A DNA stretch of 64,000 nucleotides from Myxococcota bacterium (GCA_041288095.1 JBGGMJ010000212.1:1-64000); one strand, 5' to 3'; shown: positions 2,310 through 61,875, numbered from the stretch's first letter. Translations and numbers: made by a program. Notes: generated by a model from the sequence alone, not told the origin.

Positions 2310-2337
2310 TCATCGGCCGGAAGGCGCCTCGAGTTGC
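2310..2337 (-). promoter_or_regulatory. sigma28-like promoter GCAAC-N15-GCCGATGA
   Basis: Minus strand, 18 nt before the GTG at 2291; its TGA is the stop codon of the upstream HAD gene. Confidence 0.7.
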
Positions 2338-3212
2338 GTGCGACGTTTCTCCAGTAGTTCCGCGAGCTCCTGGGTCTCGACCCAGCGGGCCCCGTTGAAC
2401 ATGAACAGAGTCATGGTCCGGCACATGGCCTCGAGGTCCGCGCCAGCGTCCGCCATTTGCTCGATCAGCATGGGGAAGATCGCTGGGCCACGGCCGGTGC
2501 AGATGGAGAATTCGATGCCGTTGTCGAGCAGCCGCAGCAACAGAGCCATGGCATCGCCGTCGATGCCCTCACCGTGCATGGTCAGCGTGCCGTCGAAGTC
2601 GAACATCAGCGCCCGCGTCGTAGGCCGCCGTCCGGCCGCGCGGGCCGCCAAGATGTCGTCGACGATGCCGTTCGCGATCTCGACCGTGCCAGCGGCGAAG
2701 CGACCGCGCCCTCGGTTATCGACCTGCGGACAGGCCGGCTCGTCTTTGCCGACGTTGTACGAGTTTGGCCCGACGAGGTGTCTGTCGTTGCCCTCGGGAC
2801 CGGCCTTATCACCGAACTTCGCGATGGCGGCGGCCGGCACGGCGAGATGCGCTGCGTATTCGACCAGCGCGTGCCCCTTGTCGACGTTGCCCTCGCCGAT
2901 GAGCACCGCTCCGCCGGCGTCACAGACGTTGACGCCTAGGGCGGCAAGCTTGCCTTGGAGGTGCGCCAGGAGCCCCGTCTTGCCCTCCGAGCCGGGCGGG
3001 ATGAGGAAGCTGTACTGGAACACCCGCTCGGGATGCCGGCTCGAGCCGAAAGCCTCGCGCAACAGCCCTGGGCGTTCGGACTCGCGGTGGATGATCTTGG
3101 TGTCGAGCCAAGGATACTGGCCGGCCGCCGATTGGACGGCGCCCACCACCGCGTCGCACTGCTCGGGAGACAGCGCATGGCGGATAGCTCGGGCTTGGGC
3201 GTCGACGCGCAT
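2310..3212 (-). CDS. Circularly permuted HAD (Cof/PMM-like, IIB) phosphatase
   Basis: Motifs III/IV (VDKGHAL, FGDKAGPEGND) precede motifs I/II (LMFDFDGTLT, ICTGRG, FNGA). Confidence 0.75.
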   Translation of the reverse strand: MRVDAQARAIRHALSPEQCDAVVGAVQSAAGQYPWLDTKIIHRESERPGLLREAFGSSRHPERVFQYSFLIPPGSEGKTGLLAHLQGKLAALGVNVCDAGGAVLIGEGNVDKGHALVEYAAHLAVPAAAIAKFGDKAGPEGNDRHLVGPNSYNVGKDEPACPQVDNRGRGRFAAGTVEIANGIVDDILAARAAGRRPTTRALMFDFDGTLTMHGEGIDGDAMALLLRLLDNGIEFSICTGRGPAIFPMLIEQMADAGADLEAMCRTMTLFMFNGARWVETQELAELLEKRRTQLEAPSGR

Positions 3213-3221
3213 CGTGCCCGA

Positions 3222-3249
3222 ATATCGGCTGGTTGGCCGCGTCGGGTGC
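3222..3249 (-). promoter_or_regulatory. sigma28-like promoter GCACC-N15-GCCGATAT
   Basis: -10 box ends 9 nt before ATG 3212; no RBS. Confidence 0.6.
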
Positions 3250-3258
3250 GCGCGACCC

Positions 3259-4602
3259 TCAGGGAATGGTGAGGCTGTCGACGTGCATGTTGCCGGGCGC
3301 AGCTATGCCGGCGAACGACTGGGCGAAGACGATGACCGCGACCGAGCTCAGGTCGAAGCCGACAGCCATGCTTGCGACCGTCGAGAAGGTGTCGCAGGCG
3401 CCGCCCGCCGTTTCCCATGAGAGCGTGCCGCCGCTCTCGCGGAAGCGCCAGCAGCGGTGCTGGCTCGCGTTGTAAGGGATGTCCGCCAGCACGTTCGAGC
3501 CATTCTGTGCCACCAGCGCGATCAGTCTGTTATTACGGACAAGAAAGAACGCCTCATTGGTCCCGCTCAAGACCCGCAGGACGCTCTCCGTCGAGGTGCT
3601 GGGCGCGAGGACCTGGGTGACGCGAGCCGTGAGCGAACGGTTACGCAGATCGTAGCTGTTGCTCGAGTAGAGGCCGGCGCCACCCGCGACCATGGGCGCC
3701 GGCGACAGCACGATGTCCCCGGCCAATTCGGCGAGCGTCGAGCCGCCGGAGGTGAAGCTGCGATCCCAGAGGGGCCCGATGACGCCGTCATTGAAGTCGT
3801 CGCCGAGCCCGTCGATGGGACAGTTCGAGAGCGCTCCGGCCCCCGGCCCATTGAAATTGTCGACGCGGGCCTGCCCAGGCGACGGCGCCTCCCCACCATC
3901 GGCAACGAGCGCGATGTGCGCGAGGTCGGCCGGGAAGGTGAGTGAAAATGTCGCGAGCTGGTTCCAAGTCGCGCCGTCGGCGCTGACCTCGGCGGCGCCG
4001 TTCTGGGCGTCGAAGACCAACCGCCACCAACGGTGCGCGTCCGCGTCATACGGGACGCTCGTCAGCGCGGTGTAGTCGCCCGCAAAGGTGCCTTGCTCGA
4101 CGACGAGCGAACCCTGGCTTTGGCGCAGGTTCAGATACCCAACGCCATAGCGGATGAGACTCAGCATGAAAAACGCGGTGGTCGTGGTATCGACCATCTC
4201 GACGACCTCGAACGTGACTTGGCCGCCGGCCACCGCGAGCGCCTCGGCCGAGACGTAGCCGGCCGAGCCGTTACCGCCGGTGGGCATCAGGTTGAGCACG
4301 CCGCCGGTCTCGGTGATGACGGCGCTCGTCGCTTGCGGCGCCCAGCCGGGCCCGCGCACCGGATCATCGAAATCGTCGTTGAGACTCGTGAGCGACCCGC
4401 ACGCCGTGCCGCAGCCCTCGTCGACCAGGCCGTCGCAGTCATCGTCCGTCCCGTTGCCGCAGGTCTCACCGGCGAGACAGGGGTCGGCCTCGAGCGCGAG
4501 AGATGTGCTCTCGAAGCCACTACGGCTCATGCACCCCGCGAGGTGTGCGGCCGCTAACACGACGATCGCCGTCAGGTGTCCCGCTGGGCTGCGGGTAAAC
4601 AC
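3259..4602 (-). CDS. Lipoprotein with myxobacterial Cys/Asp metal-binding motif and two tandem beta-sandwich repeats
   Basis: Lipobox LAGC; ETCGNGTDDDCDGLVDEGC; duplicated DDFDD..GPGW / PYDADAHRWWR vs DDFND..GPLW / PYNASQHRCWR. Confidence 0.75.
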   Translation of the reverse strand: MFTRSPAGHLTAIVVLAAAHLAGCMSRSGFESTSLALEADPCLAGETCGNGTDDDCDGLVDEGCGTACGSLTSLNDDFDDPVRGPGWAPQATSAVITETGGVLNLMPTGGNGSAGYVSAEALAVAGGQVTFEVVEMVDTTTTAFFMLSLIRYGVGYLNLRQSQGSLVVEQGTFAGDYTALTSVPYDADAHRWWRLVFDAQNGAAEVSADGATWNQLATFSLTFPADLAHIALVADGGEAPSPGQARVDNFNGPGAGALSNCPIDGLGDDFNDGVIGPLWDRSFTSGGSTLAELAGDIVLSPAPMVAGGAGLYSSNSYDLRNRSLTARVTQVLAPSTSTESVLRVLSGTNEAFFLVRNNRLIALVAQNGSNVLADIPYNASQHRCWRFRESGGTLSWETAGGACDTFSTVASMAVGFDLSSVAVIVFAQSFAGIAAPGNMHVDSLTIP

Positions 4603-4627
4603 AACTTTCCTCCTCGCCGTCCGATAT
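4601..4627 (+). promoter_or_regulatory. sigma28-like promoter ACAACTTT-N11-TCCGATAT
   Basis: Same geometry as TAAAGTTT-N11-GCCGATAA; upstream of the S8-M14 pair. Confidence 0.6.
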
Positions 4628-4651
4628 CTCGCGAGTCCTACCCTACCCTAA

Positions 4652-4675
4652 CTCCAGGTTAGTCCGAACCTGGAG
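4652..4675 (+). promoter_or_regulatory. Perfect 9-bp hairpin in the 5' leader of the subtilase
   Basis: CTCCAGGTT-agtccg-AACCTGGAG. Confidence 0.55.
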
Positions 4676-4689
4676 CCTCAGAGAACATC

Positions 4690-6654
4690 ATGAAAATGTC
4701 TGGTCCCGACCGCTCCGGAATCCCCGGAGGCGGCAGCAGTGTTCCGTCTTCCACGCTCGTCCACCTCAACGGCGTGTCCGTCGATCCGCTCAAGGTCTCG
4801 GGCAAGCCAGGCTTCGCGCCGCCAGACGCTGCTTCGGGTCAGCACATCGTCCAGCTCACTCAGGCCACCGCGCCCGAATTCAAGGCGCAGATCGAGAAGG
4901 CCGGCGGCCGCATCGTCGGCTACTTCCCGGACAACGCCTACCTCGTGCGCATGCGCGGCGACACCGTCAAAGCGGTGAAGGCCCTGCCCTTCGTTCGCGC
5001 CACCATGGCCATGCCGCCCCAGTACAAGCTGGACGGCGAGTTCCGCGCCCGCATCGGCATCGTGCCGGACACCAATCCGAAGTCGGTCGTCATCTCGACC
5101 ACCGGCAACCAGTCGCTCGCCAAGGTCGCGACCGACATGCGGCAGCTGGGCTTCACCAACATCCGCATGGGCCACGACACCGTCGTCGCCGAGGGTACGC
5201 GCGGCATGATCGACCAGGCGTCGCTGCACGACGACGTCCTCTGGATCGGTCCGAACACCGAGGCCGGTTTCGACCTCGACAACATCCGCAAGCTCGGTGG
5301 CGCGGACTACGTCTCCGGCCTTGCCAACACCAGCGGCTTCCAGGGCCAGGGCATGAAGGCGCACATTCTCGAAGGCATCGAGAAGGGTCACCCCGGCTTC
5401 GCGGCTAGCGAGCACCGCCAAGCTCCCATCGTCGTCGGCGGCGCCGGCGCCGAAGAGAGTTCGAGCCACGGCACCAACACCGCCGGCGAAGTCTTCGGCA
5501 ACGGCGCTGGCAAGCCCGAGTGGAAGGGCAGCGTCCCGCATGCCCAGGCGCTCTACACCAACGCCAGCTACGTCATGAACGCTCCTCCCGGCAGCCGCGA
5601 AGCGAACAGCCGCTGGGCCGTCACCAAGGAGCTCGTCGAGAAGCACGACATCGACGGCCAGACGGCGTCGTGGGGCTACGCCACCAACTCGAAGTACGAC
5701 GAGCGCTCGCGCGAGCTCGACGGCATCATGGCGGACTTCGACCTCGTGGTGACGCAGAGCCAGAGCAACACCGGCAGTCCGCAATCGCGGCCGCAGGCAT
5801 GGGCGAAGAACGTCATCCCGGTGACGGCCCTCTATCACTTCGACAACGCGAAGTTCGAGGATGATCGCTGGAACGGCGGCTCGAGCACGCGCGACGGCGC
5901 CGACAAGCGCATTGGCCGCACGCTGCGCGGCTTCTACGACAAGATCGGCACCACCGCCGTCGGCGGTAAGTACACGGCCGAGTTCGGCGGCACCTCCGGG
6001 GCGACGCCGATGACGCAGGGTCTCCTGCAGTCGATGATGCAGATGTACAAGGAAGGCGTCTTCCAGAGCGCCCTCTTGAACCCGTCGTCGTTCCAGATGG
6101 GCAAGCGGGCTCGCGCCGCGACGACGGCCGCCTTGGCCATCGCCACCGCGCGTCAGATGCCGTTCGCCAGCCGCACCGCGGAGAACAACCGCTACCAGCA
6201 GGGCTGGGGCATGGTCGACCTGCAGAAGGTCTACGACATGCGCGGCAAGATGCTCATCGTCAACGAGGACATCGCCTTGAAGCCGCAACAGACCGCGAGC
6301 TTCACGGTCGACGTCGCCGAGGGCGAGCCCGAGCTGAAGATCTCGATGGTCTACAAGGACCCGCCGGGTCTGGTCTCCGCCGGCAAGGCGCAGGTCAACG
6401 ACGTCGACATCAAGGTCACCGCGCCGGACGGCACTGTGTACTGGGGTAACAACGGCCTCCTCGACGGCATGTACAGCAAGTCGGGCGGTGAGCCGGATCG
6501 TCTCGACACCGTCGAGAACGTCTTCGTCGAGAAGCCCAAGGCCGGTCAGTGGAAGATCGAAGTCATCGCGACCGCGATCAACCAGCCCATCAAGGAAGGC
6601 GGCGCTCTCGAAGTGCCCTTCGCCCTGGTCGCCGCCGGCGGACGCAAGGTCTAA
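4690..6654 (+). CDS. S8 subtilisin-like serine protease with C-terminal PPC/KP-43-like domain, no signal peptide
   Basis: SHGTNTAG (His), GGTSGATP (Ser), QQGWGMVDL, C-terminal NDVDIKVTAPDG...DTVENV. Confidence 0.9.
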   Translation: MKMSGPDRSGIPGGGSSVPSSTLVHLNGVSVDPLKVSGKPGFAPPDAASGQHIVQLTQATAPEFKAQIEKAGGRIVGYFPDNAYLVRMRGDTVKAVKALPFVRATMAMPPQYKLDGEFRARIGIVPDTNPKSVVISTTGNQSLAKVATDMRQLGFTNIRMGHDTVVAEGTRGMIDQASLHDDVLWIGPNTEAGFDLDNIRKLGGADYVSGLANTSGFQGQGMKAHILEGIEKGHPGFAASEHRQAPIVVGGAGAEESSSHGTNTAGEVFGNGAGKPEWKGSVPHAQALYTNASYVMNAPPGSREANSRWAVTKELVEKHDIDGQTASWGYATNSKYDERSRELDGIMADFDLVVTQSQSNTGSPQSRPQAWAKNVIPVTALYHFDNAKFEDDRWNGGSSTRDGADKRIGRTLRGFYDKIGTTAVGGKYTAEFGGTSGATPMTQGLLQSMMQMYKEGVFQSALLNPSSFQMGKRARAATTAALAIATARQMPFASRTAENNRYQQGWGMVDLQKVYDMRGKMLIVNEDIALKPQQTASFTVDVAEGEPELKISMVYKDPPGLVSAGKAQVNDVDIKVTAPDGTVYWGNNGLLDGMYSKSGGEPDRLDTVENVFVEKPKAGQWKIEVIATAINQPIKEGGALEVPFALVAAGGRKV

Positions 6655-6659
6655 GGAAC

Positions 6660-8042: not shown

Positions 8043-8077
8043 TCGCCCTGACCTGCCGGCACTGCACTCTTTTAGGC

Positions 8078-8104
8078 GCAAGGTAGGCTCAGCGTTGCCG
8101 ATAC
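8078..8104 (+). promoter_or_regulatory. sigma28-like promoter GCAAG-N14-GCCGATAC
   Basis: -10 box ends 8 nt before in-frame GTG 8113. Confidence 0.7.
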
Positions 8105-8112
8105 GCTTCGCC

Positions 8113-9052: not shown

Positions 9053-10834
9053 ATGTTGCCGCTGGTCGCGCTGCCGGCGAGCGAAGCTCCGGCGGTCGAC
9101 GCCAAGCCACCGAAGAACCGCGCCGGCTTCTGGCGCTCGTTCGGCGCCTGGGCTGGGGTAGGCCTCTTCAGCGGCTTGCTCAACGTCGGCCTCAAGGCGG
9201 CGCTCGCGCCGCACATCCGCACTTCCTTCGACCCGCTGATCTGGCGTGTGAACAACACCGCGCAAGAGAGCCTCGGCGCCCGCTTCAATGACTCGTGGAG
9301 CAGCCCAGTGAAGGCTGCCGTCGCCCGGTGGATCGCTCCGCAAAACAAGACGGACACGACGCTCCAGGTGTTCGACGCCAAGCTCGCGGAGGAGTGCGTC
9401 GCATCATTTGTCCGCCGCAGTCAGGTCGACGACCGCGTGCGCGGCCAGACCGACGGCTTCTTCACCGGCTACCTGCGGATGACGCAGCTCGTCTGCGATG
9501 GCGTACGCGCTCGGCTCGAGGCCGGCGACATGCACGGAGCCGCCCGCCGGCTGGGCGCTACCATCGTCCGCGACCGGGTGTTGCGCTACGAGCTGACGCC
9601 GAGCCTCGAGAGCGTCCACGAGCTCGCCTACGCGCGGCTGCATCCCTATTTCGCGAAGCTCACCGTCCCCGAGCGCCAACGACTCGTCGCGATGACGCTC
9701 GCCGAGGCCGGGAAGCTCGCGACCGAGAGCGAGCGTGCCGCGGTCATCGAGCATGCACGGTCGATAGCGGAGGGCCTGACGCGTACCGCGACCTCCCACG
9801 CGCCCAAGCTTGCCGTCGGCAGCGGACCGCTGGTCGACATCGCCCGGCACGCAAACCGCGAGGAGCTCGCGGCGATGCTCGCCGGCAAAGGCGATAAGGC
9901 CGAGGCTTTGCGCGCCTATGTCGACGACCTGTTCATCAAAGGGGGTCCCGCCGGCGTTCTTGGCAAGCTCGGCGCCCAACGCGCCCGTGTCCGCTTGAGC
10001 AGAGCGGTCACGACCTCGCTCGTGGCTTTCGAGGAGAAGGTCGGCCGCCCCGCCACCCTGCAAGAGATCTGGAGCCTGGTCACCATCGCCATCGAGACAG
10101 GCGCGAGCTCGCGCATCGAATGGCAGGCCACCGCGGCCTCCGTCGCGGCCTTCGTCGCCGTCGGGGCGCTCGCGGCGATCCCCAAGTCCGCAATGACCAA
10201 CCTCGACCCGGCGGTCGCCGCCGCCATCGACCCGGTCGTCTTTACCGTCGTCGGCTTCTTCATGGGCGCCACGGGCAAGTTCTTCAAGGAGCGCCTCGAC
10301 GCCTATGGCCGCGCCGTGAGCTACAGCACACCGGACAAGCTGAGTCTCGGGAAAGCCGTCGAGCGCGACCTGCTCGATCACTTCCTGCGCGTCCTCACCA
10401 ACGACGGCCGCATCCAACCGGCCCGCCTCGCCCTCAACCAGCTCGAGCGCTTCCTGCACCTCTCGGTCATCGATGCCGAGGAGTCGTGGCGCGCGGGCGA
10501 CGAGGACGGTGCCGCCGAGTTTCTCTCGGGTGCGATGCAATACCTACGGCAAACACACTTCGCGTTCTCACCGCTAACGCGAGGCTTCGAGCTCGTCTGC
10601 ATGAAGCTCGGCCCGCACTTCGACGGGCTCGCGGACGTGCACGGGCTCCAAGAACGCGTGCTCGCGCATCTCCGCGCCACCGGCGCGGCCGAGGACGAGA
10701 TCCGGCGTTATTATCTGCCCTTCATCACGGTGCTGCTGACGCGAAACGTCGAGGCAACCTCGGCCCTGGTCGCGCCGATAATAGACAACGACGATGACGA
10801 TAAGCGGGGTACCGTCCGAGCTCAGACCACCTAG
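9053..10834 (+). CDS. Hypothetical membrane protein with two copies of the 8113 domain
   Basis: SFDPLIW...EAGDMHGAARRLG and IDPVVFTVVGFF...RAGDEDGAAEFLSG; start uncertain (9014 or 9053). Confidence 0.7.
   Translation: MLPLVALPASEAPAVDAKPPKNRAGFWRSFGAWAGVGLFSGLLNVGLKAALAPHIRTSFDPLIWRVNNTAQESLGARFNDSWSSPVKAAVARWIAPQNKTDTTLQVFDAKLAEECVASFVRRSQVDDRVRGQTDGFFTGYLRMTQLVCDGVRARLEAGDMHGAARRLGATIVRDRVLRYELTPSLESVHELAYARLHPYFAKLTVPERQRLVAMTLAEAGKLATESERAAVIEHARSIAEGLTRTATSHAPKLAVGSGPLVDIARHANREELAAMLAGKGDKAEALRAYVDDLFIKGGPAGVLGKLGAQRARVRLSRAVTTSLVAFEEKVGRPATLQEIWSLVTIAIETGASSRIEWQATAASVAAFVAVGALAAIPKSAMTNLDPAVAAAIDPVVFTVVGFFMGATGKFFKERLDAYGRAVSYSTPDKLSLGKAVERDLLDHFLRVLTNDGRIQPARLALNQLERFLHLSVIDAEESWRAGDEDGAAEFLSGAMQYLRQTHFAFSPLTRGFELVCMKLGPHFDGLADVHGLQERVLAHLRATGAAEDEIRRYYLPFITVLLTRNVEATSALVAPIIDNDDDDKRGTVRAQTT
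10754..10781 (+). promoter_or_regulatory. sigma28-like promoter GCAAC-N15-GCCGATAA
   Basis: Perfect FliA -10 box 12 nt before ATG 10794, inside the 3' end of the previous gene. Confidence 0.75.
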
Positions 10835-14824: not shown

Positions 14825-14852
14825 TCATCGGCAGAAGTCGGTCCCTAGTTGT
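14825..14852 (-). promoter_or_regulatory. sigma28-like promoter ACAAC-N15-GCCGATGA
   Basis: -10 box ends 6 nt before GTG 14818. Confidence 0.7.
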
Positions 14853-17720: not shown

Positions 17721-19052
17721 ATGCACCGTCGTGATTTGCTGAAGAGTGCTCTGGCTGGATCGGGTCTCTGGGCGCTGCGCGCCGCGGCGGTGGGCTTGCC
17801 CCTATCGTTCGTGCGGCAACCGACCGCTTTCGCGGCCGATGCCTGCGCGCCAGCGATGCTCACGGACCCCAGGGCGCCCGACTTTCTCATCATGTCGCTC
17901 GGGCCCGGCGGCGACCCGTTGAACGCCAACTGCCCAGGGGCGTACGTGACCGGCGCCAACAACAACACCAACATCGAGATGCAGGCCACCGACTTCAACC
18001 TCGGGAGCTTTGCGACCCGCGCCGCCGCGCCGTGGGCGACCCTGCCGACCGCGATGGCGGCACGCACCGCGTTCGTTCACAACCGCACCGGTGCCATCGG
18101 TCACAACCAGTTCGGCGCGGTGACCCGCTTGTTCGGCGCCGTGAAGAACGGCGACGGTCGCGGCGAGGAGTGTCTGCCCTCGGCCCTCGCGCTCGAGACC
18201 GCGGCCGCGCTCGGCAGCATCCAAGCCGAGCCGGTGGCGCTGTCGACCGCGCCACTCACGGTGCGCGGCGTGCCCGTGCAGATGTTCAAGCCGAGCGGCT
18301 TGCTCTCACTCTTCCAACCGCAAGAGTCGACCATCGGAGATCTCGCCGGCCTGCGCGACCAGACCGTCGACATCCTCCACGCGCGGCTCAAGGCTGGTGG
18401 GACCCCCGCGCAGAAGAGGTTCCTCGACCGTTACGTGCTCGGCCGCACCCAGGCACGCGCGCTCGGCGACTGCCTGGGCTCGCTGCTAGCGGAGCTACCG
18501 GTGGTCGCGGGTCAGAGCGACGGCGCGGCCGATCAGGTGCTGACCGCTATCGCGCTCTTCAAGCTCAACGTCACACCGGCGGTCACCATCACCATCCCGT
18601 ACGGGGGCGACAATCACAACGACCCGGATCTCGCGAACGAGATGAATCAAACCATCGCCGGCGTAAACGCGCTCAAATACATGTGGGCGAAGATCACCGA
18701 GTACGGCATGGCGGACAGAGTCACCTACGCCAACCTCAATACGTTCGGCCGCACCTTGAAGCGGGTGGGCGATGGCCGGTCGCACAATCAAGAACATCAC
18801 GTCATGACGATCATCGGTCGCCGGGCCAACGGGGGTGTCTACGGTGGCATCGCGCAGGGGACGCGCGACTTCGGCGCCACCGCCATCGACTCGGCGAGCG
18901 GCGCTTCGAGACCCACGGCCGACATACCGGCGGAGGAAACGCTGCAGGGGGCGGCGAAGACTCTGGCGGCGGCCGTGGGCCTCTCGAGCGAGCGCATCGG
19001 CGTCCGCATCAACGGCGGTCGCGTCATCACGGCGGCGGTCACCACGACTTGA
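17721..19052 (+). CDS. Tat-exported DUF1501/DUF1552-like protein
   Basis: MHRRDLLK Tat motif; DNH, NTFGRT, GRSHN; usual partner of the upstream family. Confidence 0.7.
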   Translation: MHRRDLLKSALAGSGLWALRAAAVGLPLSFVRQPTAFAADACAPAMLTDPRAPDFLIMSLGPGGDPLNANCPGAYVTGANNNTNIEMQATDFNLGSFATRAAAPWATLPTAMAARTAFVHNRTGAIGHNQFGAVTRLFGAVKNGDGRGEECLPSALALETAAALGSIQAEPVALSTAPLTVRGVPVQMFKPSGLLSLFQPQESTIGDLAGLRDQTVDILHARLKAGGTPAQKRFLDRYVLGRTQARALGDCLGSLLAELPVVAGQSDGAADQVLTAIALFKLNVTPAVTITIPYGGDNHNDPDLANEMNQTIAGVNALKYMWAKITEYGMADRVTYANLNTFGRTLKRVGDGRSHNQEHHVMTIIGRRANGGVYGGIAQGTRDFGATAIDSASGASRPTADIPAEETLQGAAKTLAAAVGLSSERIGVRINGGRVITAAVTTT

Positions 19053-20366: not shown

Positions 20367-20407
20367 GCGAGGCGTAGTCTATATCGTCATGGTAGCCTTG
20401 AGCTACG

Positions 20408-34469: not shown

Positions 34470-34497
34470 GCGACGCGCTCTCACCAGGAGCCGATAA
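34470..34497 (+). promoter_or_regulatory. sigma28-like promoter GCGAC-N15-GCCGATAA
   Basis: Perfect -10 box 9 nt before ATG 34507. Confidence 0.7.
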
Positions 34498-34506: not shown

Positions 34507-35916
34507 ATGAAAGTCTGGCTGGGCCCTACCCCCACCTCATTCCGCGCCCAAAGCCCGGCGAACGCACGTCCCGCCGAGCCATCGATCCGGCGTCAATCCG
34601 CGCGCGCGTGGCCTGATGGGCCGACGAAGCCGGCTCAGGCCTTTGCACGCCGCCGGCCTGACGGGGCGAGCTACCTCGACGCCGCCAAAGTCGCCGAGCT
34701 CTTCGGCGAGCTGGCGCCGCGTCTACCGGCGGAGCTCGCGAAGTCTCTCGAAACACCGCGTATCGATCCACGTTGGTGGGCATGTCCGGCGCCGAAGACC
34801 ATCGCCACGGTCATAGGCACGGACGCATTCAGCAGCGGCAAGTCGCCGTGGCTCCTCGCCTCGCGGGCGGCGTTACCCGAGGGATTGCCGGACGACCTGC
34901 GGAGCTACCTCACCCCCGTGCCCGAGGGGCAGCATTGGCGGTCGGGTTACTTTCCCGTTTTAGCGGACGGGAGGCAAAGCATGGGCGCCTTCGTCGCGCT
35001 CCTGCCGCCGAGCTTCGACGCGGCGAACCCCGCGAAGTCGATCGAGCGTATCGTGCTCACCATCGGCAGCGGCGACAACCGCGCACGCAGCGCCCTCGGT
35101 GAGCTTGCCGGCTACGCGGCGCCCGGCACCCTCTTCGTCTCGGTCGATATGCAGGCGCTCTCGGTCGGCATGAAGTCCCCCGAGAGCCCAGGTCAGATCG
35201 CCTTGCAGCAAGGCGTCGCCTACGTGCGACGCACCTTGGGTCTTACGGACGCGGTCCCGCAGTACCTCGCCGGCTTCTCGGCGGGCGGCGCCGCCGCCTT
35301 GGTCCAAGCCTTCCAGAGCTTCCCTGGCCTCAAGGGCGCCGCCGCCCTCGCGCCGGTGATCATGCAGTGGAACGTTCACACGCGAAAGTCGCCGGTGCCC
35401 GTGACCATCCCCGAGGAAGCGCCCGGCGATCACTTTGCCCGCACCGCCGCGAACGGCCAGCCGGCAATCGAACGCACCTTCACGGTCGCGAGCAATGTCG
35501 TTCGCGCTTACACCAGCGAAGAAGACTTCGCGGAGCTCAGCCCACAGCGTCATCTCGCGCGTGGCGAGATGCCGAAGGTGCCGCTCCTCATCACCGGCGG
35601 CACCGCCGACCTCATCGCCCAGCCGGTGGTGTCCTCCGCCGCGGAGCTTGCTTCGTTCAACAAGGGGCTCACGATTCCCGTGGTCTTTGGTCCCTCCGAC
35701 GACCAGGCCGGCCGCGTCATCAACATCGAAGGTTTCGCGCGCGCCTTGAGCACACAACCAGGCGTCGCGGTGGTCACGTTGCGCGATGTCGGCCACCAGA
35801 TCGCGGCGCCCGTGAAGCGCCCAGACGGCGCCAGCTGGAACATGGATATGCGCGACCTGATGCTGCGCTTCTTCAAAGGCCTCGAGGCCGCGCGAAGCAA
35901 CACCAGCACCGTATAG
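34507..35916 (+). CDS. Alpha/beta hydrolase with N-terminal extension, no signal peptide
   Basis: GFSAGG nucleophile elbow, GGTAD, DVGH. Confidence 0.75.
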   Translation: MKVWLGPTPTSFRAQSPANARPAEPSIRRQSARAWPDGPTKPAQAFARRRPDGASYLDAAKVAELFGELAPRLPAELAKSLETPRIDPRWWACPAPKTIATVIGTDAFSSGKSPWLLASRAALPEGLPDDLRSYLTPVPEGQHWRSGYFPVLADGRQSMGAFVALLPPSFDAANPAKSIERIVLTIGSGDNRARSALGELAGYAAPGTLFVSVDMQALSVGMKSPESPGQIALQQGVAYVRRTLGLTDAVPQYLAGFSAGGAAALVQAFQSFPGLKGAAALAPVIMQWNVHTRKSPVPVTIPEEAPGDHFARTAANGQPAIERTFTVASNVVRAYTSEEDFAELSPQRHLARGEMPKVPLLITGGTADLIAQPVVSSAAELASFNKGLTIPVVFGPSDDQAGRVINIEGFARALSTQPGVAVVTLRDVGHQIAAPVKRPDGASWNMDMRDLMLRFFKGLEAARSNTSTV

Positions 35917-35923
35917 CCGATAC
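35897..35923 (+). promoter_or_regulatory. sigma28-like promoter GCAAC-N14-GCCGATAC
   Basis: Overlaps the stop of the previous gene; 30 nt before ATG 35954. Confidence 0.75.
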
Positions 35924-38480: not shown

Positions 38481-38541
38481 GATGTCGAGTATCCGCAGGA
38501 AAATATCGGGAGTTGCGTACGCCGCTACCGAACCCGCGGCA

Positions 38542-39068: not shown

Positions 39069-39095
39069 GAAACTTTGGCGGGCCATAGCCGACGT
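39069..39095 (+). promoter_or_regulatory. sigma28-like promoter GAAACTTT-N11-GCCGACGT
   Basis: Correct spacing, degenerate -10; 22 nt before ATG 39118. Confidence 0.5.
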
Positions 39096-41343: not shown

Positions 41344-41391
41344 CGCACAGCAGCGTGTGCCGTGAGGGCACAGCGTCTCCGAGCGTGTGTC

Positions 41392-41399
41392 GCCGATAA
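41392..41399 (+). promoter_or_regulatory. sigma28-like -10 box GCCGATAA (no clear -35)
   Basis: Perfect -10, 36 nt before ATG 41436. Confidence 0.5.
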
Positions 41400-42419: not shown

Positions 42420-42446
42420 TCATCGGCGCATGGGCCCGCCTGGTGC
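42420..42446 (-). promoter_or_regulatory. sigma28-like promoter GCACC-N14-GCCGATGA
   Basis: Left member of a divergent pair. Confidence 0.65.
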
Positions 42447-42502: not shown

Positions 42503-42530
42503 GCGACGAACCGGCAACGTTTGCCGATGA
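42503..42530 (+). promoter_or_regulatory. sigma28-like promoter GCGAC-N15-GCCGATGA
   Basis: Right member of a divergent pair, upstream of the four-gene operon. Confidence 0.65.
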
Positions 42531-46763: not shown

Positions 46764-48827
46764 ATGATGGTCGAGGCGGTCAACCGTCTCTTTGCTCGCC
46801 TCGGCCTTTCCAGTGCGCCGAGCGAACCGGCTTTGCCGCCGTTTCGTCCGGAAGATATTTGCACCTCCGATCCGGAGCGCCGCGTCCCACCGAGCTTCCT
46901 CGGTGAGGCGCGGCCTTCGGCCGTCGCCCACCATCACGGCATCGCACCGGCGCCACGCGTAGCGGCTCCGCTATCGCGTCCCACCACCTGGACGCCCCAG
47001 CAGTACGAGCGCTTCGCGGCACGGGTCCGCGAGTATCTCGCGCAAAACGACACCCTCCTGCCGCATCATGCCGCTTGGCACGAGGTGAACGGCCCCGGCG
47101 GCTCGCGCGGCCCCGGCTCGGGCACCGCTTTCTTGCAGATGCATCACGAGATGATCGTCGACATGGAGCGCTTCATCCGCGCCTCGGGGCGCGACCTCGA
47201 TCTGGTGCCGCTGGTCGAATGGCGGCCGACGCAGGAGGTGCCGCCGCAGCTCGGTAACGTCGAACGCTACTCGACCACCCCGAACGTGCGCACGCCGTCG
47301 TGGCTCACGAGCGAGGGTGGCACGGAGCGCGCGCCGATCTTCGGTTACACCCGCCTCGCCGACTTCAAGAGCCTCGACGAGCTCGGTCGCGCCTTTGGCA
47401 GCGGCCCGCCGGACAATCTCGGCTACCACGGCGCCGGCCACGCTGGAGTCGGCGGCGTCATGTGGAGTCGCCGCGCGCCCGTCGATCCGGTCTTCTGGCT
47501 GTGGCACCGCCACATCGACAACATCGTCGAGACCTGGCTTGCGACCGAAAACGGCCGCGCCTGGGCGGCGACCGACGAAGGCCGCGCCTGGCGTGAGGCG
47601 ACTGGCCACCATCACCACGCGGCGCCGGGCGACAAGGTTCACGAGCGCACCGAAGCGCTGCTGCGTATGCGCGCCGCCAACGCCGCCGACTACGAGAGCT
47701 ACATGTCGGGCTCGTCCTTCGACCCGCCCGTGAACGCCTGGCCCGCCGACGCGCTGCCGATCAACGTCCAGAGCTCCGAGCGCATGAACCATCTCGGCGT
47801 CACGGTGCAGACGCTCGCAAGCGATCTGCGCGTGCCGTGGGGCATGGCCTTCGCGCCGAACGGCGACGTCTACTTCACCGAGCGCGGTGGCCGCGTTCGC
47901 GTCATCCGCGACGGCGTCGTGCAGTCACAGCCCGTCCTCACCATCCCGGTCGGGGGCGGCGAAGGTGGCCTGCTCGGCATCGCGCTCGATCCGGATTTCG
48001 CGCGCAACAACCTCGCCTATCTTTACTACACGACACCCGGCTCGACCGAGAACCGCGTCGTGCGCGTGCCGCTCGCGGGCCCCAACGTCGGCCAGCAGTC
48101 GGTCATCGTCTCGGGCATCCCGGCCTCCGGCATCCATAACGGCGGACGCATCGCCTTCGGCCCCGACGGCAAGCTCTACATCACCACCGGCGACGCGGCG
48201 CGCTCGAACAGCGCCCAGGACCTGCGCTCGCTCGGCGGCAAGATCTTGCGCGTCAACAGAGACGGCTCCGCTCCCGCGGACAACCCCTTCGTGGGTCGTG
48301 CCGATGCCGACGCGCGCATCTGGACCTACGGCCACCGCAACCCGCAGGGTCTATCCTGGAACAGCCGTGGCGAGCTGATCGCCAGCGAGCTCGGCGGCGC
48401 CTCGCAGGACGAGATCAATCTCATTCGTCCCGGCAGCAACTATGGCTGGCCCGAGGCCCAGGGCGACTCGCACCGCCCGCCGTTCACGGCACCGCTGGCT
48501 CATGCCGGCCGCAACCCGAGCTGGGCCCCATCGGGCGGCACGTTCCTCACCAGCGGCAAGATCCCGCAGTGGCAGGACCGCTATTTCATGGCGATGCTCG
48601 GCTTTGGCCCTGGCGCCGCGCGCGGCCTGCGGATGTTCGAGCTCGACGAGAACAACCAGGTGCGCAACCAGACCGTGTTGTTCCGTGACGTCTACGGCCG
48701 CGTTCGCAACGTCATGCAGGGCCCCGACGGTTATCTCTACGTAACCACCAGCAACCATGATGGTCGCGGCGAGCCCGGACGCGGCGATGATCAGATCCTG
48801 CGCATCGTCCCGAGCACGGCGCGCTGA
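46764..48827 (+). CDS. Tyrosinase-like type-3 copper domain fused to a PQQ-dependent sugar dehydrogenase
   Basis: HHAAWH...FLQMHH and YHGAGH...DPVFWLWHRHID, then a GSDH domain closely similar to 43999. Confidence 0.85.
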   Translation: MMVEAVNRLFARLGLSSAPSEPALPPFRPEDICTSDPERRVPPSFLGEARPSAVAHHHGIAPAPRVAAPLSRPTTWTPQQYERFAARVREYLAQNDTLLPHHAAWHEVNGPGGSRGPGSGTAFLQMHHEMIVDMERFIRASGRDLDLVPLVEWRPTQEVPPQLGNVERYSTTPNVRTPSWLTSEGGTERAPIFGYTRLADFKSLDELGRAFGSGPPDNLGYHGAGHAGVGGVMWSRRAPVDPVFWLWHRHIDNIVETWLATENGRAWAATDEGRAWREATGHHHHAAPGDKVHERTEALLRMRAANAADYESYMSGSSFDPPVNAWPADALPINVQSSERMNHLGVTVQTLASDLRVPWGMAFAPNGDVYFTERGGRVRVIRDGVVQSQPVLTIPVGGGEGGLLGIALDPDFARNNLAYLYYTTPGSTENRVVRVPLAGPNVGQQSVIVSGIPASGIHNGGRIAFGPDGKLYITTGDAARSNSAQDLRSLGGKILRVNRDGSAPADNPFVGRADADARIWTYGHRNPQGLSWNSRGELIASELGGASQDEINLIRPGSNYGWPEAQGDSHRPPFTAPLAHAGRNPSWAPSGGTFLTSGKIPQWQDRYFMAMLGFGPGAARGLRMFELDENNQVRNQTVLFRDVYGRVRNVMQGPDGYLYVTTSNHDGRGEPGRGDDQILRIVPSTAR

Positions 48828-55256: not shown

Positions 55257-55283
55257 TCATCGGCCATCCGTGGCCCGGGTTGC
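55257..55283 (-). promoter_or_regulatory. sigma28-like promoter GCAAC-N14-GCCGATGA
   Basis: 47 nt before ATG 55209. Confidence 0.75.
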
Positions 55284-55308
55284 GGGAAACGTCGCGCGGC
55301 CCTAGCTA

Positions 55309-56448
55309 ATGGCCATGGACCGAGCTCCCCGACTCATCGCCCTTACGGCTCTCGCAACAGTAACGCTCTTGTCAGCGCATCTCGACGCGGCCGCTCAGCG
55401 CACCATCAAGACGAAAGACGGCCCCATCCACGCCACCCGCGTTGCCGGAGGGCTCGCCCACCCATGGGGCATCGCTTTCCTTCCGGACGGTCGGATGCTG
55501 GTCACCGAACGCCCGGGTCGCCTACGCCTCATCGATGGAAACGGCGCCGTGAGTCCGCCTTTGCGCGGCACTCCCAACGTGGTGGTCACGGATCAGGGCG
55601 GCCTGCTCGACGTCGCGCTGAGCCCGTCCTTCAAAGCGGACCGCTTCGTGTACCTGACGTATGCCGAGCCCGGCGAAGGCGGCGCTTCGACCGCGGTGGC
55701 CCGCGGCACTCTGTCCGCCAAAGAAAACTCCATCGAGGGTCTCGCGGTCATCTTCCGTCAGACACCTAAGGTCGAGGGCCCGAACCATTGGGGCTCGCGC
55801 ATGGTCTTCGCGAAGGACGGCAAGCTCTTCGTCACCTTGGGTGAGCGCTTCAAGTTCGACCCCGCGCAAGACACACGGACGACCTTCGGCGCCATCGTGC
55901 GCATCGCCGCGGACGGTAGCGCTCCCATAGACAACCCCTTCTTCGGTAAGAAGGACACACGCCCGGAGATCTGGAGCCACGGGCATCGCAACGTCCAAGG
56001 GGCGGCGATTCACCCCACGACCGGCGTCCTTTGGGCCCACGAGTTCGGTCCGCGCGGTGGTGACGAGCTCAACATCATCAAAGCCGGCAAGAACTACGGC
56101 TGGCCACTCGTCAGTTGGGGAAAACACTATGACCTCCGCGACATCCCCGATCCGCCGACCCGCCCCGACCTCGAACCGCCCGTGAAGTACTGGGACCCGG
56201 TCATCTCGCCATCCGGGATGACCTTCTACACCGGCGATCTCTTTCCGAAATGGCGCGGCAATCTCCTCATTGGCGGCTTGTCCGCCGAAGCGGTGGTGCG
56301 CCTCGGCCTCGACGGCGACAAGGTCGTCGCCGAGGAGCGCATCGGCATGGGCGAGCGCGTCAGAGCGGTCGCGCAGGCTCCGGACGGGTCCATCGTCGTC
56401 CTCACCGACGATGACGACGACGGCGCAGTCATTCGTCTCACCCCGTAG
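55309..56448 (+). CDS. PQQ-dependent aldose sugar dehydrogenase (YliI-like) with Sec signal peptide
   Basis: Signal ending AAA; LVTERPGRL, QGGLLDV, HWGSR, GHRNVQG. Confidence 0.92.
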   Translation: MAMDRAPRLIALTALATVTLLSAHLDAAAQRTIKTKDGPIHATRVAGGLAHPWGIAFLPDGRMLVTERPGRLRLIDGNGAVSPPLRGTPNVVVTDQGGLLDVALSPSFKADRFVYLTYAEPGEGGASTAVARGTLSAKENSIEGLAVIFRQTPKVEGPNHWGSRMVFAKDGKLFVTLGERFKFDPAQDTRTTFGAIVRIAADGSAPIDNPFFGKKDTRPEIWSHGHRNVQGAAIHPTTGVLWAHEFGPRGGDELNIIKAGKNYGWPLVSWGKHYDLRDIPDPPTRPDLEPPVKYWDPVISPSGMTFYTGDLFPKWRGNLLIGGLSAEAVVRLGLDGDKVVAEERIGMGERVRAVAQAPDGSIVVLTDDDDDGAVIRLTP

Positions 56449-56517
56449 CCGCCGCTCATTCCGCAGTTGCGTCCGCAGCGCCGGAGTGTAACCCTCCCAA
56501 CAACGAGGAGGGGTCCC

Positions 56518-59800: not shown

Positions 59801-61125
59801 TGCGTGAAGCCGGCGAGATTTCCAACAACCATCCCCATCCGGCCGGACACCGCGCCCAGTGTCGCCGGCAGCGGTGGATTCAAGCCGTCGCTTGCTTGAA
59901 TGCGCAAGCGCACCAGATCGGGCTGGGCGTTGCCGATGTCGGCCACCGAGTCCCAGCGGAAGATGTGCACGATGCCCCGTCCCTCGGCGGTAGTTAGATC
60001 GTAGCGGCCGTGGCTCAGCTCGTCGGGATATTCGCTGCAAGGCGCCCAGAGGAGCTCATCGTCCATCGCGTATTCGACGGTGATGTCGACCAAGTCGGCC
60101 TCGGCGTCCGACACTCGATACTCGACGCTGATCGCGCCCGAGATGCCGTCGATCAAGCCACCTTGCGCGAAGATGCCCTGCACGATCGGAGCCGTCTGGT
60201 TGTCGACCGACAGGGTCACGACCGACCATGCTCCGTAATCGCGGACGCCGTCGATCTCGTCGTAGGCACGCATGCGCAAACCCACCGCTGTCTCCGTGCG
60301 CGCGCCGATGCCGCCGACGAGGAGAGGTGCCTCGCTATCCCACACCAAGACGTTCTCGCGCCCGTCGCTCTCGAGGTCCGCGACGACACCGACGCGCAAC
60401 CGCGCATCCCGCCAGACATCTAGGTCGTCGAGACGGTACTGGATTTCCACGTTCGCGGGATCGAACGCGGTGTCGGTCACACGGAACTCTACCGGGATGT
60501 CGCCGCGGAACGTGCGGGTGTCGAGCAGGACCTCGGTGGCTGGCGCGTCGTTGCCCGCGCCCACGATGCTGGTCGTGAAAGTCTGTCCGGCGAGAGCGGG
60601 CGAGCCGTCGTCCGTAGGGGTCGCGCGCGCCGCGAAGGTCGGCGTGTAGGCCACGACGTCGACGTCGCCGACCTCGTCACCATCGGTGTCTGCTTGCCGC
60701 ACCGTGAGGCCACAGCCCCCGGTGGCCTCGTTCACGAGATCGAGCAGGACGCGATAGTCCACGCCGTCGCTCGACGCGGAAAGGTCGTTGACCCCGTTCG
60801 CCGTGGAAGCAAGGCACCAAATGCTCTGATCGCGTGAGTATTCGACGGCGAGGGACACGCGGTCGTCGCCGAAAGGCGCGGCGTTGGCGTCCCGCACCGT
60901 GATATCGAGCTCGACCTCGCGCGTCACGCGCTCGATGTCCGCGATAGCGACACCGGGCGCGAGGTTCCCTTGACCCTCGGCGCAGCTATTGGTCACCGGA
61001 TTGCAGCGCGACCCTTCGGGACAATCGTCATCATCGGCACAGGTGACGATGACGCCTTCGGGAATTCCCAGGTCGACGGAGCACGACGCCAAGAGCAAAG
61101 CGGGTAAGCAATGACGGAAGCGCAT
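56830..61125 (-). CDS. Large FG-GAP/VCBS-repeat surface lipoprotein
   Basis: LLASC lipobox; many GDFDGDG..D repeats. Confidence 0.88.
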   Translation of the reverse strand: MRFRHCLPALLLASCSVDLGIPEGVIVTCADDDDCPEGSRCNPVTNSCAEGQGNLAPGVAIADIERVTREVELDITVRDANAAPFGDDRVSLAVEYSRDQSIWCLASTANGVNDLSASSDGVDYRVLLDLVNEATGGCGLTVRQADTDGDEVGDVDVVAYTPTFAARATPTDDGSPALAGQTFTTSIVGAGNDAPATEVLLDTRTFRGDIPVEFRVTDTAFDPANVEIQYRLDDLDVWRDARLRVGVVADLESDGRENVLVWDSEAPLLVGGIGARTETAVGLRMRAYDEIDGVRDYGAWSVVTLSVDNQTAPIVQGIFAQGGLIDGISGAISVEYRVSDAEADLVDITVEYAMDDELLWAPCSEYPDELSHGRYDLTTAEGRGIVHIFRWDSVADIGNAQPDLVRLRIQASDGLNPPLPATLGAVSGRMGMVVGNLAGFTQDIQGLAGVIDPVAMGDFNADGFADAAYFNGTQLVLRLGSSTGLGGFGVIAVANDRPRMAVTRFNADGADDLLIRVDGTTVRPFRGVPGAVTPASTLLAGTNVTSPASPDRDITAGDFDGDGDIDFVINDFEEVRLYLGNGAGAFTLDTNAYGLPTDIFELAAGDFDGDGFADLATASAAPTLLAPIMVWFGQASVAGGPRLGTPVQVTALRYTVDDDAVVDQEEGVVLASGNANGDAFADLGATATELAQNGRTGLLLGSSTRDFARVNGTAIEGRPRTVRFGDVNGDGRQDLVTSTDQEVLGIDRLIPGASPVMQRLSTIDVSSCLTTSPLSHATADVTGDGRSEIVVARRGCDDVLYLSPQPAPAAGSGAFGTPNTVSGSAIVNAFEVADVDSDGLLDALWLDRQSDAAFVFQATADLTHATGGLRLAGVGFFDANISGGLRAPFIADLNGDGLLDGVTHDGDLQQREWVLLGELGQGAGTFGLQPRAVLTSAAVDFLFSFRMDAFDLNRDGPAELIEISGPDVRIHHPVIVGGVWQGSYADETITTGLASLMAVVPADINNDGVLDLVVTANNGANSNIEILTANVSGGAPTGTFSRACAAPLVVNAVHTAIAVADFNDDGLQDLAFGLSAGGNTQIRTYGITFGPCALSAIPGTSPVLGGGQPNSIHAADVNHDGISDIVALVGAGAARRVWVASGLADQGKATGFFSAWGDVGTLSEGRMIRLADSNRDGVNDLFIASELQETVGVALGNRISSFGAWSRALPPGNVLGPGADFAADRFGTPKVQRLMTRFYGDLEPRQPGEQRDFMSEARASLLPQATNAKLRPLSRAIAFSGDVALGADTQDDVRYRIVHKLGTPVARGLSLDDPATPRGVVVTMPVMPALSAVPITGGGARPVVVYVRATDWVRASDWPDDPLFQDARGDEVLPLRNGRPVIRPITTWETVPADADGDLATGTGPRFVTRPGFVDVALDTLGVVQAFYIAP

Positions 61126-61161
61126 TCTCCCGCCTTTTTACCCTCAAACCGGGGAGCAGGC

Positions 61162-61809
61162 CTATGACCGCGTGAACACCACGTGGGTCGCCTTTTCGGT
61201 GGCAGCGTGCTCGCTCACGCGATAGCCGAGCTTCGGCAGATCGATACCTCGCAAGAGGTGCTCACCCTTGCCCAAGACGACCGGTGACACGACGAGGTGG
61301 AGCTCATCGATGGCGCCCGCCTCCAGGTAATGGCGAACGGTCGCGACTCCTCCACCGACGCGAATGTCTTTCGCGCCCGCCGCCTCCTTCGCTCGCCGCA
61401 TGGCCTCATCCGGTCCGCCCGTCACGAAGTGGAACGTCGTGCCACCCTTCATCTCGAACGACTTGCGCGCATGGTGCGTGAGCACGAAGACCGGCACGTG
61501 GTACGGCGGTTCCTCGCCCCACCAACCTTGCCACGACTCATCGGGCCACGGTCCGCGCACGGGGCCGAACATGTTGCGGCCGAGGATCCAAGCGCCGAGG
61601 CCCGCCATGCTGCGCTTCGCAAAGTCGTCGTCGACCCCGGTCGTTCCCTCGTCGCGCCCACCAAACATGGTGTGGAAGGTCCGGGTCGTGACCATCCAGC
61701 CATGGAGCTGTTCGCCGCGCTCTCCCATTGGCTTGTCCAAGGTCTGGCTCGAGCCGGCGCCATAGCCGTCGAGCGAGATGGTGAAAGCGTTCACACGTAC
61801 TTTGCTCAT
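61162..61809 (-). CDS. Dihydrofolate reductase / RibD C-terminal family protein
   Basis: ISLDGY, ILGRNMF, VFVLTH, GGGVAT, IDELHL. Confidence 0.92.
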   Translation of the reverse strand: MSKVRVNAFTISLDGYGAGSSQTLDKPMGERGEQLHGWMVTTRTFHTMFGGRDEGTTGVDDDFAKRSMAGLGAWILGRNMFGPVRGPWPDESWQGWWGEEPPYHVPVFVLTHHARKSFEMKGGTTFHFVTGGPDEAMRRAKEAAGAKDIRVGGGVATVRHYLEAGAIDELHLVVSPVVLGKGEHLLRGIDLPKLGYRVSEHAATEKATHVVFTRS

Positions 61810-61848
61810 GCGGACTCCTCGTAGTGCCAGCGTGGCTCAGGGCCCCGC

Positions 61849-61875
61849 GAAACGGGCCCCCTTACCCCGCGATAA
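61849..61875 (+). promoter_or_regulatory. sigma28-like promoter GAAAC-N14-CGCGATAA
   Basis: Degenerate -10, 8 nt before ATG 61884. Confidence 0.5.

Follow-up and report, generated by a model that had tools for sequence, protein, structure and literature searches.

A stretch of 64,000 nucleotides of DNA from a Myxococcota bacterium (GCA_041288095.1, JBGGMJ010000212.1:1-64000; 'the window' here means this whole stretch) carries, dispersed between positions 2,310 and 61,875, a two-part element of the form cGCAAC-N14/15-GCCGATAA. At odds that we would put at roughly seven in ten, the element represents a class of promoters read by an alternative sigma factor belonging to the sigma-28 (FliA/WhiG) family, most likely the one termed sigma(b) below, whose gene belongs to a type III secretion cluster. 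The initial annotation of the window had proposed that a sigma-28-family factor with a shifted -35 element drives a large non-flagellar regulon. That proposal is supported, and both the residues of sigma(b) and the phylum-wide occurrence of the motif at the locus of sigma(b) narrow it to a secretion-linked paralogue; it is from these that we infer sigma(b) to be the factor that binds the motif.

How far does such a motif stand out from its background in DNA of this composition? The assembly (G000; 5.85 Mb in 212 contigs, with the window on contig C212) is 66% G+C and about 90% complete, and its genes were called crudely by their G+C content at third codon positions (GC3). A fixed-spacing matrix blurred N14 and N15, and unlimited iteration of a two-block matrix drifted upward; the matrix used throughout is a two-block one frozen after a single strict refinement round. 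Enrichment over shuffled and coding background, which the initial annotation had named as a check on its idea, is strong upstream of genes genome-wide. At 16 bits or more, 3970 upstream windows contain 234 sense and 109 antisense matches, many of the latter serving divergent genes, against 12 in shuffled and about 9-12 in coding sequence. The whole genome has 478 sites of at least 16 bits and 204 of at least 20 bits, for which scaled controls give roughly 100-140 and fewer than about 16 chance sites, respectively. Subtraction of the scaled control counts from the site totals therefore yields an estimate of ~200-350 real sites. The same picture comes from word counts. The most enriched 7-mer in the regions from -120 to +30 is CCGATAA (93 copies vs 12.2 expected, and 27 antisense), and 146 of its 246 copies are in the non-coding 20% of the genome. 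Upstream of the 2029 non-coding copies of CCGAT[AG], CAAC starts 102 times at -19 and 47 times at -20, but 3-15 times at each of the other 22 offsets examined. The pattern CAAC-N14/15-GCCGATA is present 80 times vs 3 in a reversed control.

Could the motif be a housekeeping promoter? This was ruled out, as only about 6-8% of genes carry it. Separately, tandem GCCGATA/GCCGATG heptamers are present at C12:403(-), C107:1642(+), C64:132, C67:13252 and C69:10162, in two cases preceded by the same sequence of roughly 28 nt, and these have the look of a dispersed repeat that has nothing to do with the promoters.

In the window itself, all 14 sites that the initial annotation had listed are present at their coordinates and on their strands, 11 with an exact GCCGAT[AG] box and three with near matches (TCCGATAT at 4620, GCCGACGT at 39088 and CGCGATAA at 61868). 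The related pentamer that it had noticed ahead of the box holds up too, an xCAAC-like pentamer being found 14 or 15 nt 5′ of the box at every listed site. Taken alone, the heptamer GCCGATR (70 in the window, 27.1 expected) is a weak signal because most of its copies are intragenic GCC-GAT-G codons; genome-wide, CCGATGA has a three-base periodicity of coding type. For the composite motif CAAC-N14/15-GCCGAT the window has 7 copies vs 0.33 expected, a number reached by 0 of 100 shuffles, and for the relaxed form C[AG][AC]C-N14/15-GCCGAT it has 16 vs 4.12, again with 0 of 100 shuffles as high. The two-block matrix adds a 15th good site, at 38489-38516(-), together with two intragenic matches, all of them absent from the initial annotation. 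Few regions of the genome are as rich in sites as the window, which has 7 per 30 kb where the mean is 1.8.

The two halves of the motif have different affinities. The -10 half is the sigma-28 consensus, as had been claimed: the matrix recovers the octamer GCCGATAA, with frequencies of G.80, C.86, C.97, G.99, A.98, T.88, A.77 and A.52. The spacing is also that of the sigma-28 class, which expects about 15 nt, for among the 123 exact sites CAAC-N14/15-GCCGAT[AG] in the genome N14 accounts for 82 and N15 for 41. The -35 element is (a/g)CGCAAC, and the TAAA(GTTT) element of the sigma-28 class is not found; TAAA-N15-17-CGAT[AG]A is at background level in the genome, with 11 copies vs 5 in a reversed-genome control. 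Myxobacteria are usually considered non-flagellated. The flagellin genes of the sister species G001, G002, G003 and G005 are preceded by cT[AC]AAGGT-N11-GnCGATG, which is the canonical TAAAGGTT-N11-GGCGATGA layout and not CGCAAC, and no flagellin gene was found in G000. A flagellar cluster comprising FlhF, FlhG, FliA, a rod protein and two flagellins is seen in G001 (contig C2; loci L065, L249 and L254) and also in G002, G003 and G005; the FlhF/FlhG/FliA/flagellin cluster was not found in the about 90%-complete G000 assembly.

The sites are placed as promoters would be. A long open reading frame of high GC3 starts within 300 nt downstream, on the same strand, at 374 of the 478 sites of at least 16 bits, most of the starts being within 80 nt, and the distances show a peak, with 48 start codons at +15 to +17 when counted from the box's first G. 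In the sigma-28 open complex of Pseudomonas on the fliC promoter, as described in the accessible part of PMC12784957, the box occupies -15 to -8, which would put the transcription start at +15 from the box's first G. With start codons peaking at +15 to +17, this implies that many of the motif promoters give leaderless mRNAs, whose transcription would start at, or a few bases from, the start codon; spacing of this leaderless type is found at 7 of the 15 window sites. Selection on the element can be followed in 11 orthologue comparisons that cover six window sites and three sister species. The -35 pentamer is identical at 54 of 55 positions and the -10 octamer at 82 of 88, while in the same alignment the spacer is identical at 81 of 159 positions and the 20-nt flanks at 134 of 220 and 144 of 220. 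As the boxes are kept while the spacer drifts, selection acts on the boxes, and the motif is, so far as its conservation can tell, a real promoter class that has been maintained.

Which sigma factor, then, would read it? The genome has 36 sigma-70-family genes, namely one RpoD, two RpoD-like, one RpoH, about 30 of the extracytoplasmic function (ECF) group and two that best match FliA/WhiG. The initial annotation had anticipated both a sigma-28-family gene and a FlgM homologue; the two sigma-28-like genes, sigma(b) and sigma(c), answer to the former and an 80-aa FlgM adjoining sigma(c) to the latter. The sigma(b) gene (C92:35188-36072(-)) encodes 294 amino acids, and the best solved relatives of its product are FliA and WhiG; for both proteins the best NCBIfam family is TIGR02479 (FliA/WhiG), with 163.7-164.4 bits for sigma(b) and 166.4 bits for sigma(c). 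Orthologues of sigma(b), at 56-99% identity, are present in 19 of 21 genomes of the same order and in three genomes of other families, and every one of its best 80 relatives bears a label of Myxococcota, Myxococcales, Polyangia, Archangium or Myxococcus, or else an old delta-proteobacterial one. These labels speak against a planctomycete origin of the DNA, which a DUF1585/PSD2 match had suggested and which was rejected. By comparison sigma(c) (C127:21744-22571) is restricted: it was found, at 59-92% identity, only in the host genus and G005, with weak relatives in two more genomes. A third lineage, (a), is bona fide FliA, scoring above the curated family cut-off; it is present in G001, where the neighbourhood reads FlhF - FlhG - FliA - rod protein, and in G005 and G016, and it was not found in the G000 assembly, which is about 90% complete. 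A tree sets sigma(b), along with its distant relatives, apart from (a) plus (c) with support of 100/100. As to the surroundings of sigma(c), the segment C127:21744-22853 holds the gene, whose product has a canonical -35 helix, followed by the 80-aa FlgM; flagellar genes are not nearby and a regulon for it was not recognised.

The residues of sigma(b) can be set against the -10 and -35 base contacts of Pseudomonas FliA given in the portion of PMC12784957 that was available. R80, R82, D87, R97 and R104 of the Pseudomonas protein have R132, R134, D139, R149 and R156 as their sigma(b) counterparts, and Y76 is replaced by F128. Across 10 sigma(b) relatives there is no variation at R132, D139 or R142, and conservation at R149 and R156 is at least 90%. 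At the -35 contacts, S224 is kept as S271, Q228 has become R275, and the residue after S224, an R, has become W272, so that the recognition helix of region 4.2 reads SKSWTSRLHAR in sigma(b) vs the canonical SESRVSQLHSQ. The SKSW..R pattern is invariant across the sigma(b) clade, and clades (a) and (c) have the canonical S-R-V-x-Q. Sigma(b) is thus predicted to keep the machinery that reads GCCGA and to have an altered -35-reading helix, and contacts kept for the one half and changed for the other fit a promoter with an unchanged -10 and a changed -35. Mechanistically, domain 2/3 of sigma(b) would read the extended -10 GCCGA, and it is proposed that with SKSWTSRLHAR in place of SESRVSQLHSQ the altered region 4.2 helix would dock on the GC-rich CGCAAC rather than on TAAA.

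The genetic setting of sigma(b) points the same way. Its gene is the last of a conserved block that encodes a 185-aa protein, a 138-aa TPR protein, a 159-aa protein and sigma(b) itself, and in most genomes there follow an SctI-like gene (a weak PF17001 match of 17-25 bits, below the cut-off), SctJ, a FliG-like gene, SctL and SctN. In G000 an efflux operon is inserted at the locus, and the secretion cluster lies at C92:600-24182, with genes for an SctI-like protein, a 292-aa protein of the YscJ/FliF family, a FliG-like protein, FliH/SctL and the type III secretion ATPase, and further for YscO-like, FliK-like, FliM/N, FliP, FliQ and FliR proteins. The SctI-like gene of G000 has an 18.7-bit site upstream (C92:24300(-)), and the FHIPEP gene, on contig C31, has a 17.1-bit site 388 nt before it. 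Across the phylum, 31 of 52 SctI-like genes adjoining sigma(b) have a site of at least 12 bits within 330 nt, many of these scoring 20-27 bits. A scan of 49 Myxococcota loci with full flanks (524 kb, including two cultured-strain records) found 69 sites of at least 16 bits on the strand of the sigma gene vs 5 on the other strand. They cluster at the operon head, 1.0-2.6 kb upstream of the sigma gene, in 28 of the 49 loci, and shortly past the sigma gene, at +0.3 to +1.3 kb, in 26 of the 49. The cultured strains have strong sites, of 24.9 bits in a Myxococcus sp., whose gene order is TPR - ORF (open reading frame) - sigma - SctI-like - SctJ - SctL - SctN, and of 24.6 bits in Archangium lansingense. 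In G005, which has 40 exact sites, one of 27.7 bits lies 118 nt before the TPR gene; that this genome might be rich in the motif and lack sigma(b) was ruled out, its contig C83 ending ~45 codons into the sigma(b) gene, an assembly artefact. The motif at the head of the operon for the needle-like, TPR chaperone-like, 159-aa and sigma(b) proteins would provide positive feedback and would also drive the SctI-like gene of the secretion cluster, and in the host genus the class would have spread to roughly 200-350 promoters, many of them leaderless.

Some companions of sigma(b) merit description in their own right. The 159-aa protein (C92:36185-36664(-); L031:10186-10665) belongs to no family and is a candidate anti-sigma factor or secreted regulator, its gene being the immediate predecessor of the sigma gene in 17 genomes or more; in the Protein Atlas its nearest clusters are of Myxococcota and Acidobacteriota, and its score of 0.77 to a YopR/PscH family cluster is within chance range. 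The 185-aa protein (C92:37386-37943(-); L031:11387-11944), product of the first gene of the sigma operon, has a C-terminus like that of needle proteins, and the Protein Atlas places it at 0.90 to a cluster with T3SS_needle_F in 11% of its members. Inside the secretion cluster, C92:10570-13679(-) encodes two further proteins, one with an HD domain and one of 779 aa that has DUF4781 as well as a faint RelA/SpoT-like region. In seven Myxococcaceae loci (L141, L143, L151, L156, L157, L165 and L173) GGCAAC-N14/15-GACGATGATGT is present inside the sigma coding region, at about +333 to +465 counted from the start of the sigma gene; this is either a promoter within the gene or a coincidence of the coding sequence.

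Several observations tell against assigning the motif to sigma(b). The matrix was trained on the same genome to which it was applied, and hence the site counts vary with the threshold. None of the 36 sigma-family genes, sigma(b) included, has a site of at least 16 bits within 600 nt upstream, the nearest operon-head site of G000 has only 16.1 bits, and the region before its TPR gene is degenerate, with a poor -10. At about 164 bits sigma(b) is below the curated TIGR02479 cut-off of 189.6. The exact pattern is without excess, despite the presence of sigma(b), in G006 (6 vs 4), G012 (10 vs 4), G040 (7 vs 3) and G007 (0 vs 2), and about 40% of the places where the motif would be expected have no site at the thresholds used (21 of 52 SctI-like genes and 21 of 49 operon heads). 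Some of the downstream sites, in Myxococcaceae and Archangium, fall in the 3′ coding end of the sigma gene or inside it, and may be conserved for coding reasons. Lastly, the genomes richest in the motif, those of the host genus and G005, also carry sigma(c) with its FlgM neighbour.

This last point leads to the alternative that the reader of the motif is another sigma-28-like paralogue, either sigma(c) or a canonical FliA that may be missing from a 90%-complete assembly. The genomes to which sigma(c) is limited have the highest exact motif counts (74-112 in the host genus and 40 in G005), and the R..R..D...R pattern of -10 contacts is kept in all three paralogues. However, the -35 helix is of the canonical type (S...Q) both in sigma(c) and in canonical FliA, the flagellins of G001, G002, G003 and G005 have a -35 of TAAAGGTT/TCAAGGTT type rather than CGCAAC, and the motif is kept at the sigma(b) locus of many genomes where sigma(c) was not found, among them G015, G019, G014, G009 and G004, and of the Myxococcus and Archangium records, with G015 and G017 having 42-43 exact sites and no sigma(c). 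On balance we regard another paralogue as an unlikely reader.

Might the motif instead be the promoter of an ECF sigma? Many ECF promoters have AAC in the -35 and CGT in the -10, as do those of Bacillus sigma-W/X/M, and AAC-N16/17-CGA would be of the same geometry. The CAAC core of the -35 and the spacing match that geometry, and most of the 36 sigma-70-family genes are of the ECF group. Their -10 elements, though, are short and of CGT type, and here the -10 is the eight-base GCCGATAA with every position informative, a signature of sigma-28. ECF sigmas are usually autoregulated; no ECF gene has a site of at least 16 bits within 600 nt upstream, the best being one of 15.5 bits 289 nt upstream of one of them, and what the motif tracks phylum-wide is the sigma(b) operon. 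An ECF origin is accordingly judged improbable. That the two boxes are no promoter at all, and instead a transcription-factor binding site or dispersed repeat, is very hard to credit: about a fifth of the sites of at least 16 bits have no gene start within 300 nt and the boxes are known from sequence alone, but the sites are strictly oriented toward genes with start codons at a fixed distance from the box, two conserved blocks around a free spacer of 14-15 nt are sigma geometry, the motif is asymmetric and non-palindromic, and its flanks are not conserved, so that it is not a mobile repeat.

What would sigma(b) switch on? The initial annotation had stated that no flagellar gene is among the targets, and the window's motif targets indeed include none. 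Of the 15 window targets 11 have no Pfam family, as against 10 of 24 non-targets, and among the 60 top-scoring targets outside the window, from 191 that qualify at 19 bits or more, 45 have none at 1e-6. Those of the 60 that could be assigned include two subtilases, a GH3 glycosidase, a serpin, an adenosine deaminase, hydrolases and a Ser/Thr kinase. The N-termini of target proteins are unusual. A hydrophobic 10-mer in the first 45 residues is found in 27 of 233 targets (11.6%) vs 33% of all called genes, and in 19% of the 47 leaderless targets, whose starts are best defined; errors in start codons could contribute to the low rate of signal peptides. In the first 30 residues P (1.41x), Q (1.34x), S (1.24x) and T (1.19x) are enriched and aromatic residues depleted, and among the targets are enzymes of kinds usually secreted through Sec (M64, M13, subtilase, GH3) that have no signal peptides. 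Such N-termini would be consistent with export by a type III-like machine. A much bolder proposal, to our minds doubtful though worth stating, is that the box marks the complete regulon of a myxobacterial type III-like system, that most of the ~200-350 genes encode exported substrates or effectors for the killing or digestion of prey, and that the 159-aa neighbour is FlgM-like and couples sigma activity to secretion, any such coupling being presumptive.

The individual sites in the window are as follows, a plus sign giving the distance from the first G of the box to the start codon. On the minus strand, GCAAC-N15-GCCGATGA at 2310..2337 (22.0 bits) is a predicted promoter of an orphan gene, 630-2291, with no Pfam family, whose GTG start is 26 nt past the box's first G and has GGGAGG 5′ of it; GCACC-N15-GCCGATAT at 3222..3249 on the same strand (17.7 bits) precedes a gene for a HAD-like hydrolase, 2310-3212, with ATG at +17, of leaderless type. 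There follow three predicted promoters on the plus strand, all of orphan genes: ACAAC-N14-TCCGATAT at 4601..4627 (21.4 bits; gene 4690-6654), GCAAG-N14-GCCGATAC at 8078..8104 (19.1 bits; gene ending at 9024, with an in-frame GTG at 8113, +16, of leaderless type) and GCAAC-N15-GCCGATAA at 10754..10781 (25.5 bits; gene 10794-12080, ATG +20). ACAAC-N15-GCCGATGA at 14825..14852(-) (20.2 bits) would serve a PLD-like gene, 12944-14818, with GTG at +14.

Further along, the plus strand has GCGAC-N15-GCCGATAA at 34470..34497 (19.0 bits), before an orphan gene, 34507-35916, with ATG at +17, the boxes being kept in G002 with an altered spacer, and GCAAC-N14-GCCGATAC at 35897..35923 (24.5 bits), before an M64 peptidase gene, 35954-37618, and kept in G002 and G003. 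The added site at 38489..38516(-), GCAAC-N15-GCGGATAC (21.3 bits), would drive an orphan gene, 37620-38480, from a GTG at +16 and is kept in G001 and G002. Two plus-strand candidates come next: GAAAC-N14-GCCGACGT at 39069..39095, weak at 13.9 bits and within chance range, lies before an M13 peptidase gene with its ATG at 39118 and GAGGAG 5′ of that, and GCGTC-N14-GCCGATAA at 41373..41399 (13.1 bits), with a poor -35, precedes a small orphan gene, 41436-41822, its -10 box being kept in G002. A divergent pair of predicted promoters consists of GCACC-N14-GCCGATGA at 42420..42446(-) (18.9 bits; orphan gene 41827-42366), both boxes of which are kept in G001, G002 and G003, and GCGAC-N15-GCCGATGA at 42503..42530(+) (16.5 bits; gene 42623-43999), kept in G001 and G002. 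GCAAC-N14-GCCGATGA at 55257..55283(-) (22.6 bits) would be the promoter of an orphan gene, 53569-55209, and a weak candidate, GAAAC-N14-CGCGATAA at 61849..61875(+) (13.9 bits), stands before an orphan gene that ends at 62465 and has an ATG at 61884, +16. The two intragenic matches are both on the plus strand. GCAAC-N14-GCCGATGC at 17816..17842 (17.2 bits), inside the gene 17721-19052, may be an internal promoter, may show that the gene start was misplaced (ATG 17856 at +21) or may be due to chance; ACAAC-N15-GCCGATGC at 48280..48307 (18.8 bits), inside the gene 46764-48827, is probably chance or a silent internal site.

Two other features of the window may be recorded. Three paralogues of glucose/sorbosone dehydrogenase are encoded at 43999-45339, 46764-48827 and 55309-56448, one of them fused to a tyrosinase-like domain, and at 19059-21895 the gene for an FHA-domain sigma-54 activator and one for a Ser/Thr protein kinase are divergently oriented.

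Why should such a box matter? If it marks the regulon, it is a genome-wide finder of effectors for a system whose cargo is unknown, and a scan for it in any myxobacterial genome gives a list of co-regulated genes, a handle both direct and cheap. The few hundred, mostly orphan, target genes could be the long-sought cargo of the type III system, a link that is open to test and potentially valuable. There is also the more general interest of a sigma family that would keep its -10 reading head and re-tune its -35 helix so that flagellar and secretory sigma-28 regulons coexist without cross-talk, and of one regulon that, within a single genus, has expanded from a few promoters to hundreds.

Within the phylum the nearest known system is the T3SS* (type III secretion system) of Myxococcus xanthus, described in the accessible text of PMC10433427, PMC10849154 and PMC10196010 as being without needle and secretin, as needed for prey lysis and as having unknown effectors. 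The G000 cluster shares with it SctJ, SctL, SctN, SctQ, SctRST, SctV and LcrH-like TPR chaperones. The available text of these three reviews mentions no sigma factor, the word 'sigma' occurring 0 times in that of PMC10433427 and PMC10196010. SigF of M. xanthus (MXAN_0785; PMC9548883, in the part available) was considered as the sigma of the cluster and is probably not, being outside the two secretion clusters set out in the accessible part of PMC10196010. No earlier description of sigma(b) or of the box was found in the literature covered, which did not extend to Thiery et al. 2022 and Konovalova et al. 2010.

Compared with the late flagellar promoters of FliA/sigma-28 in E. coli and Pseudomonas aeruginosa, as presented in the part of PMC12784957 at hand, the motif has the same -10, GCCGATAA, and near-equal spacing. 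Sigma(b) is likewise a group-3 sigma factor with no region 1 and conserved -10-contact residues. Unlike FliA promoters, the motif has CGCAAC and not TAAA(G) as its -35, an R of sigma(b) replaces the -35 contact Q228, and the targets are non-flagellar; unlike FliA itself, sigma(b) is encoded in a non-flagellar type III secretion cluster, has no adjacent FlgM and would have a regulon roughly ten times larger.

Control of non-flagellar programmes by the sigma-28 family has precedents in WhiG of actinobacteria and sigma-28 of Chlamydia, which direct sporulation or pili and late developmental genes, use the canonical TAAA -35, answer to RsiG/c-di-GMP or other partners and are not known to be encoded in the operon of a secretion system. 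Sigma(b) would resemble these two in its non-flagellar role and differ from them in its -35; the location of its gene in a secretion cluster also sets it apart. Sigma factors encoded with type III secretion systems are also known: HrpL, with its hrp box, in plant-pathogenic Pseudomonas and BtrS in Bordetella are ECF (group 4) sigmas whose box stands before apparatus genes and dispersed effector genes, and the box can serve to find effectors. Unlike them, sigma(b) is a group-3 relative of sigma-28 with a different box and targets whose secretion is only putative. Its gene nevertheless lies within the secretion cluster and its putative box stands upstream of apparatus genes, an arrangement in which it would work as HrpL and BtrS do.

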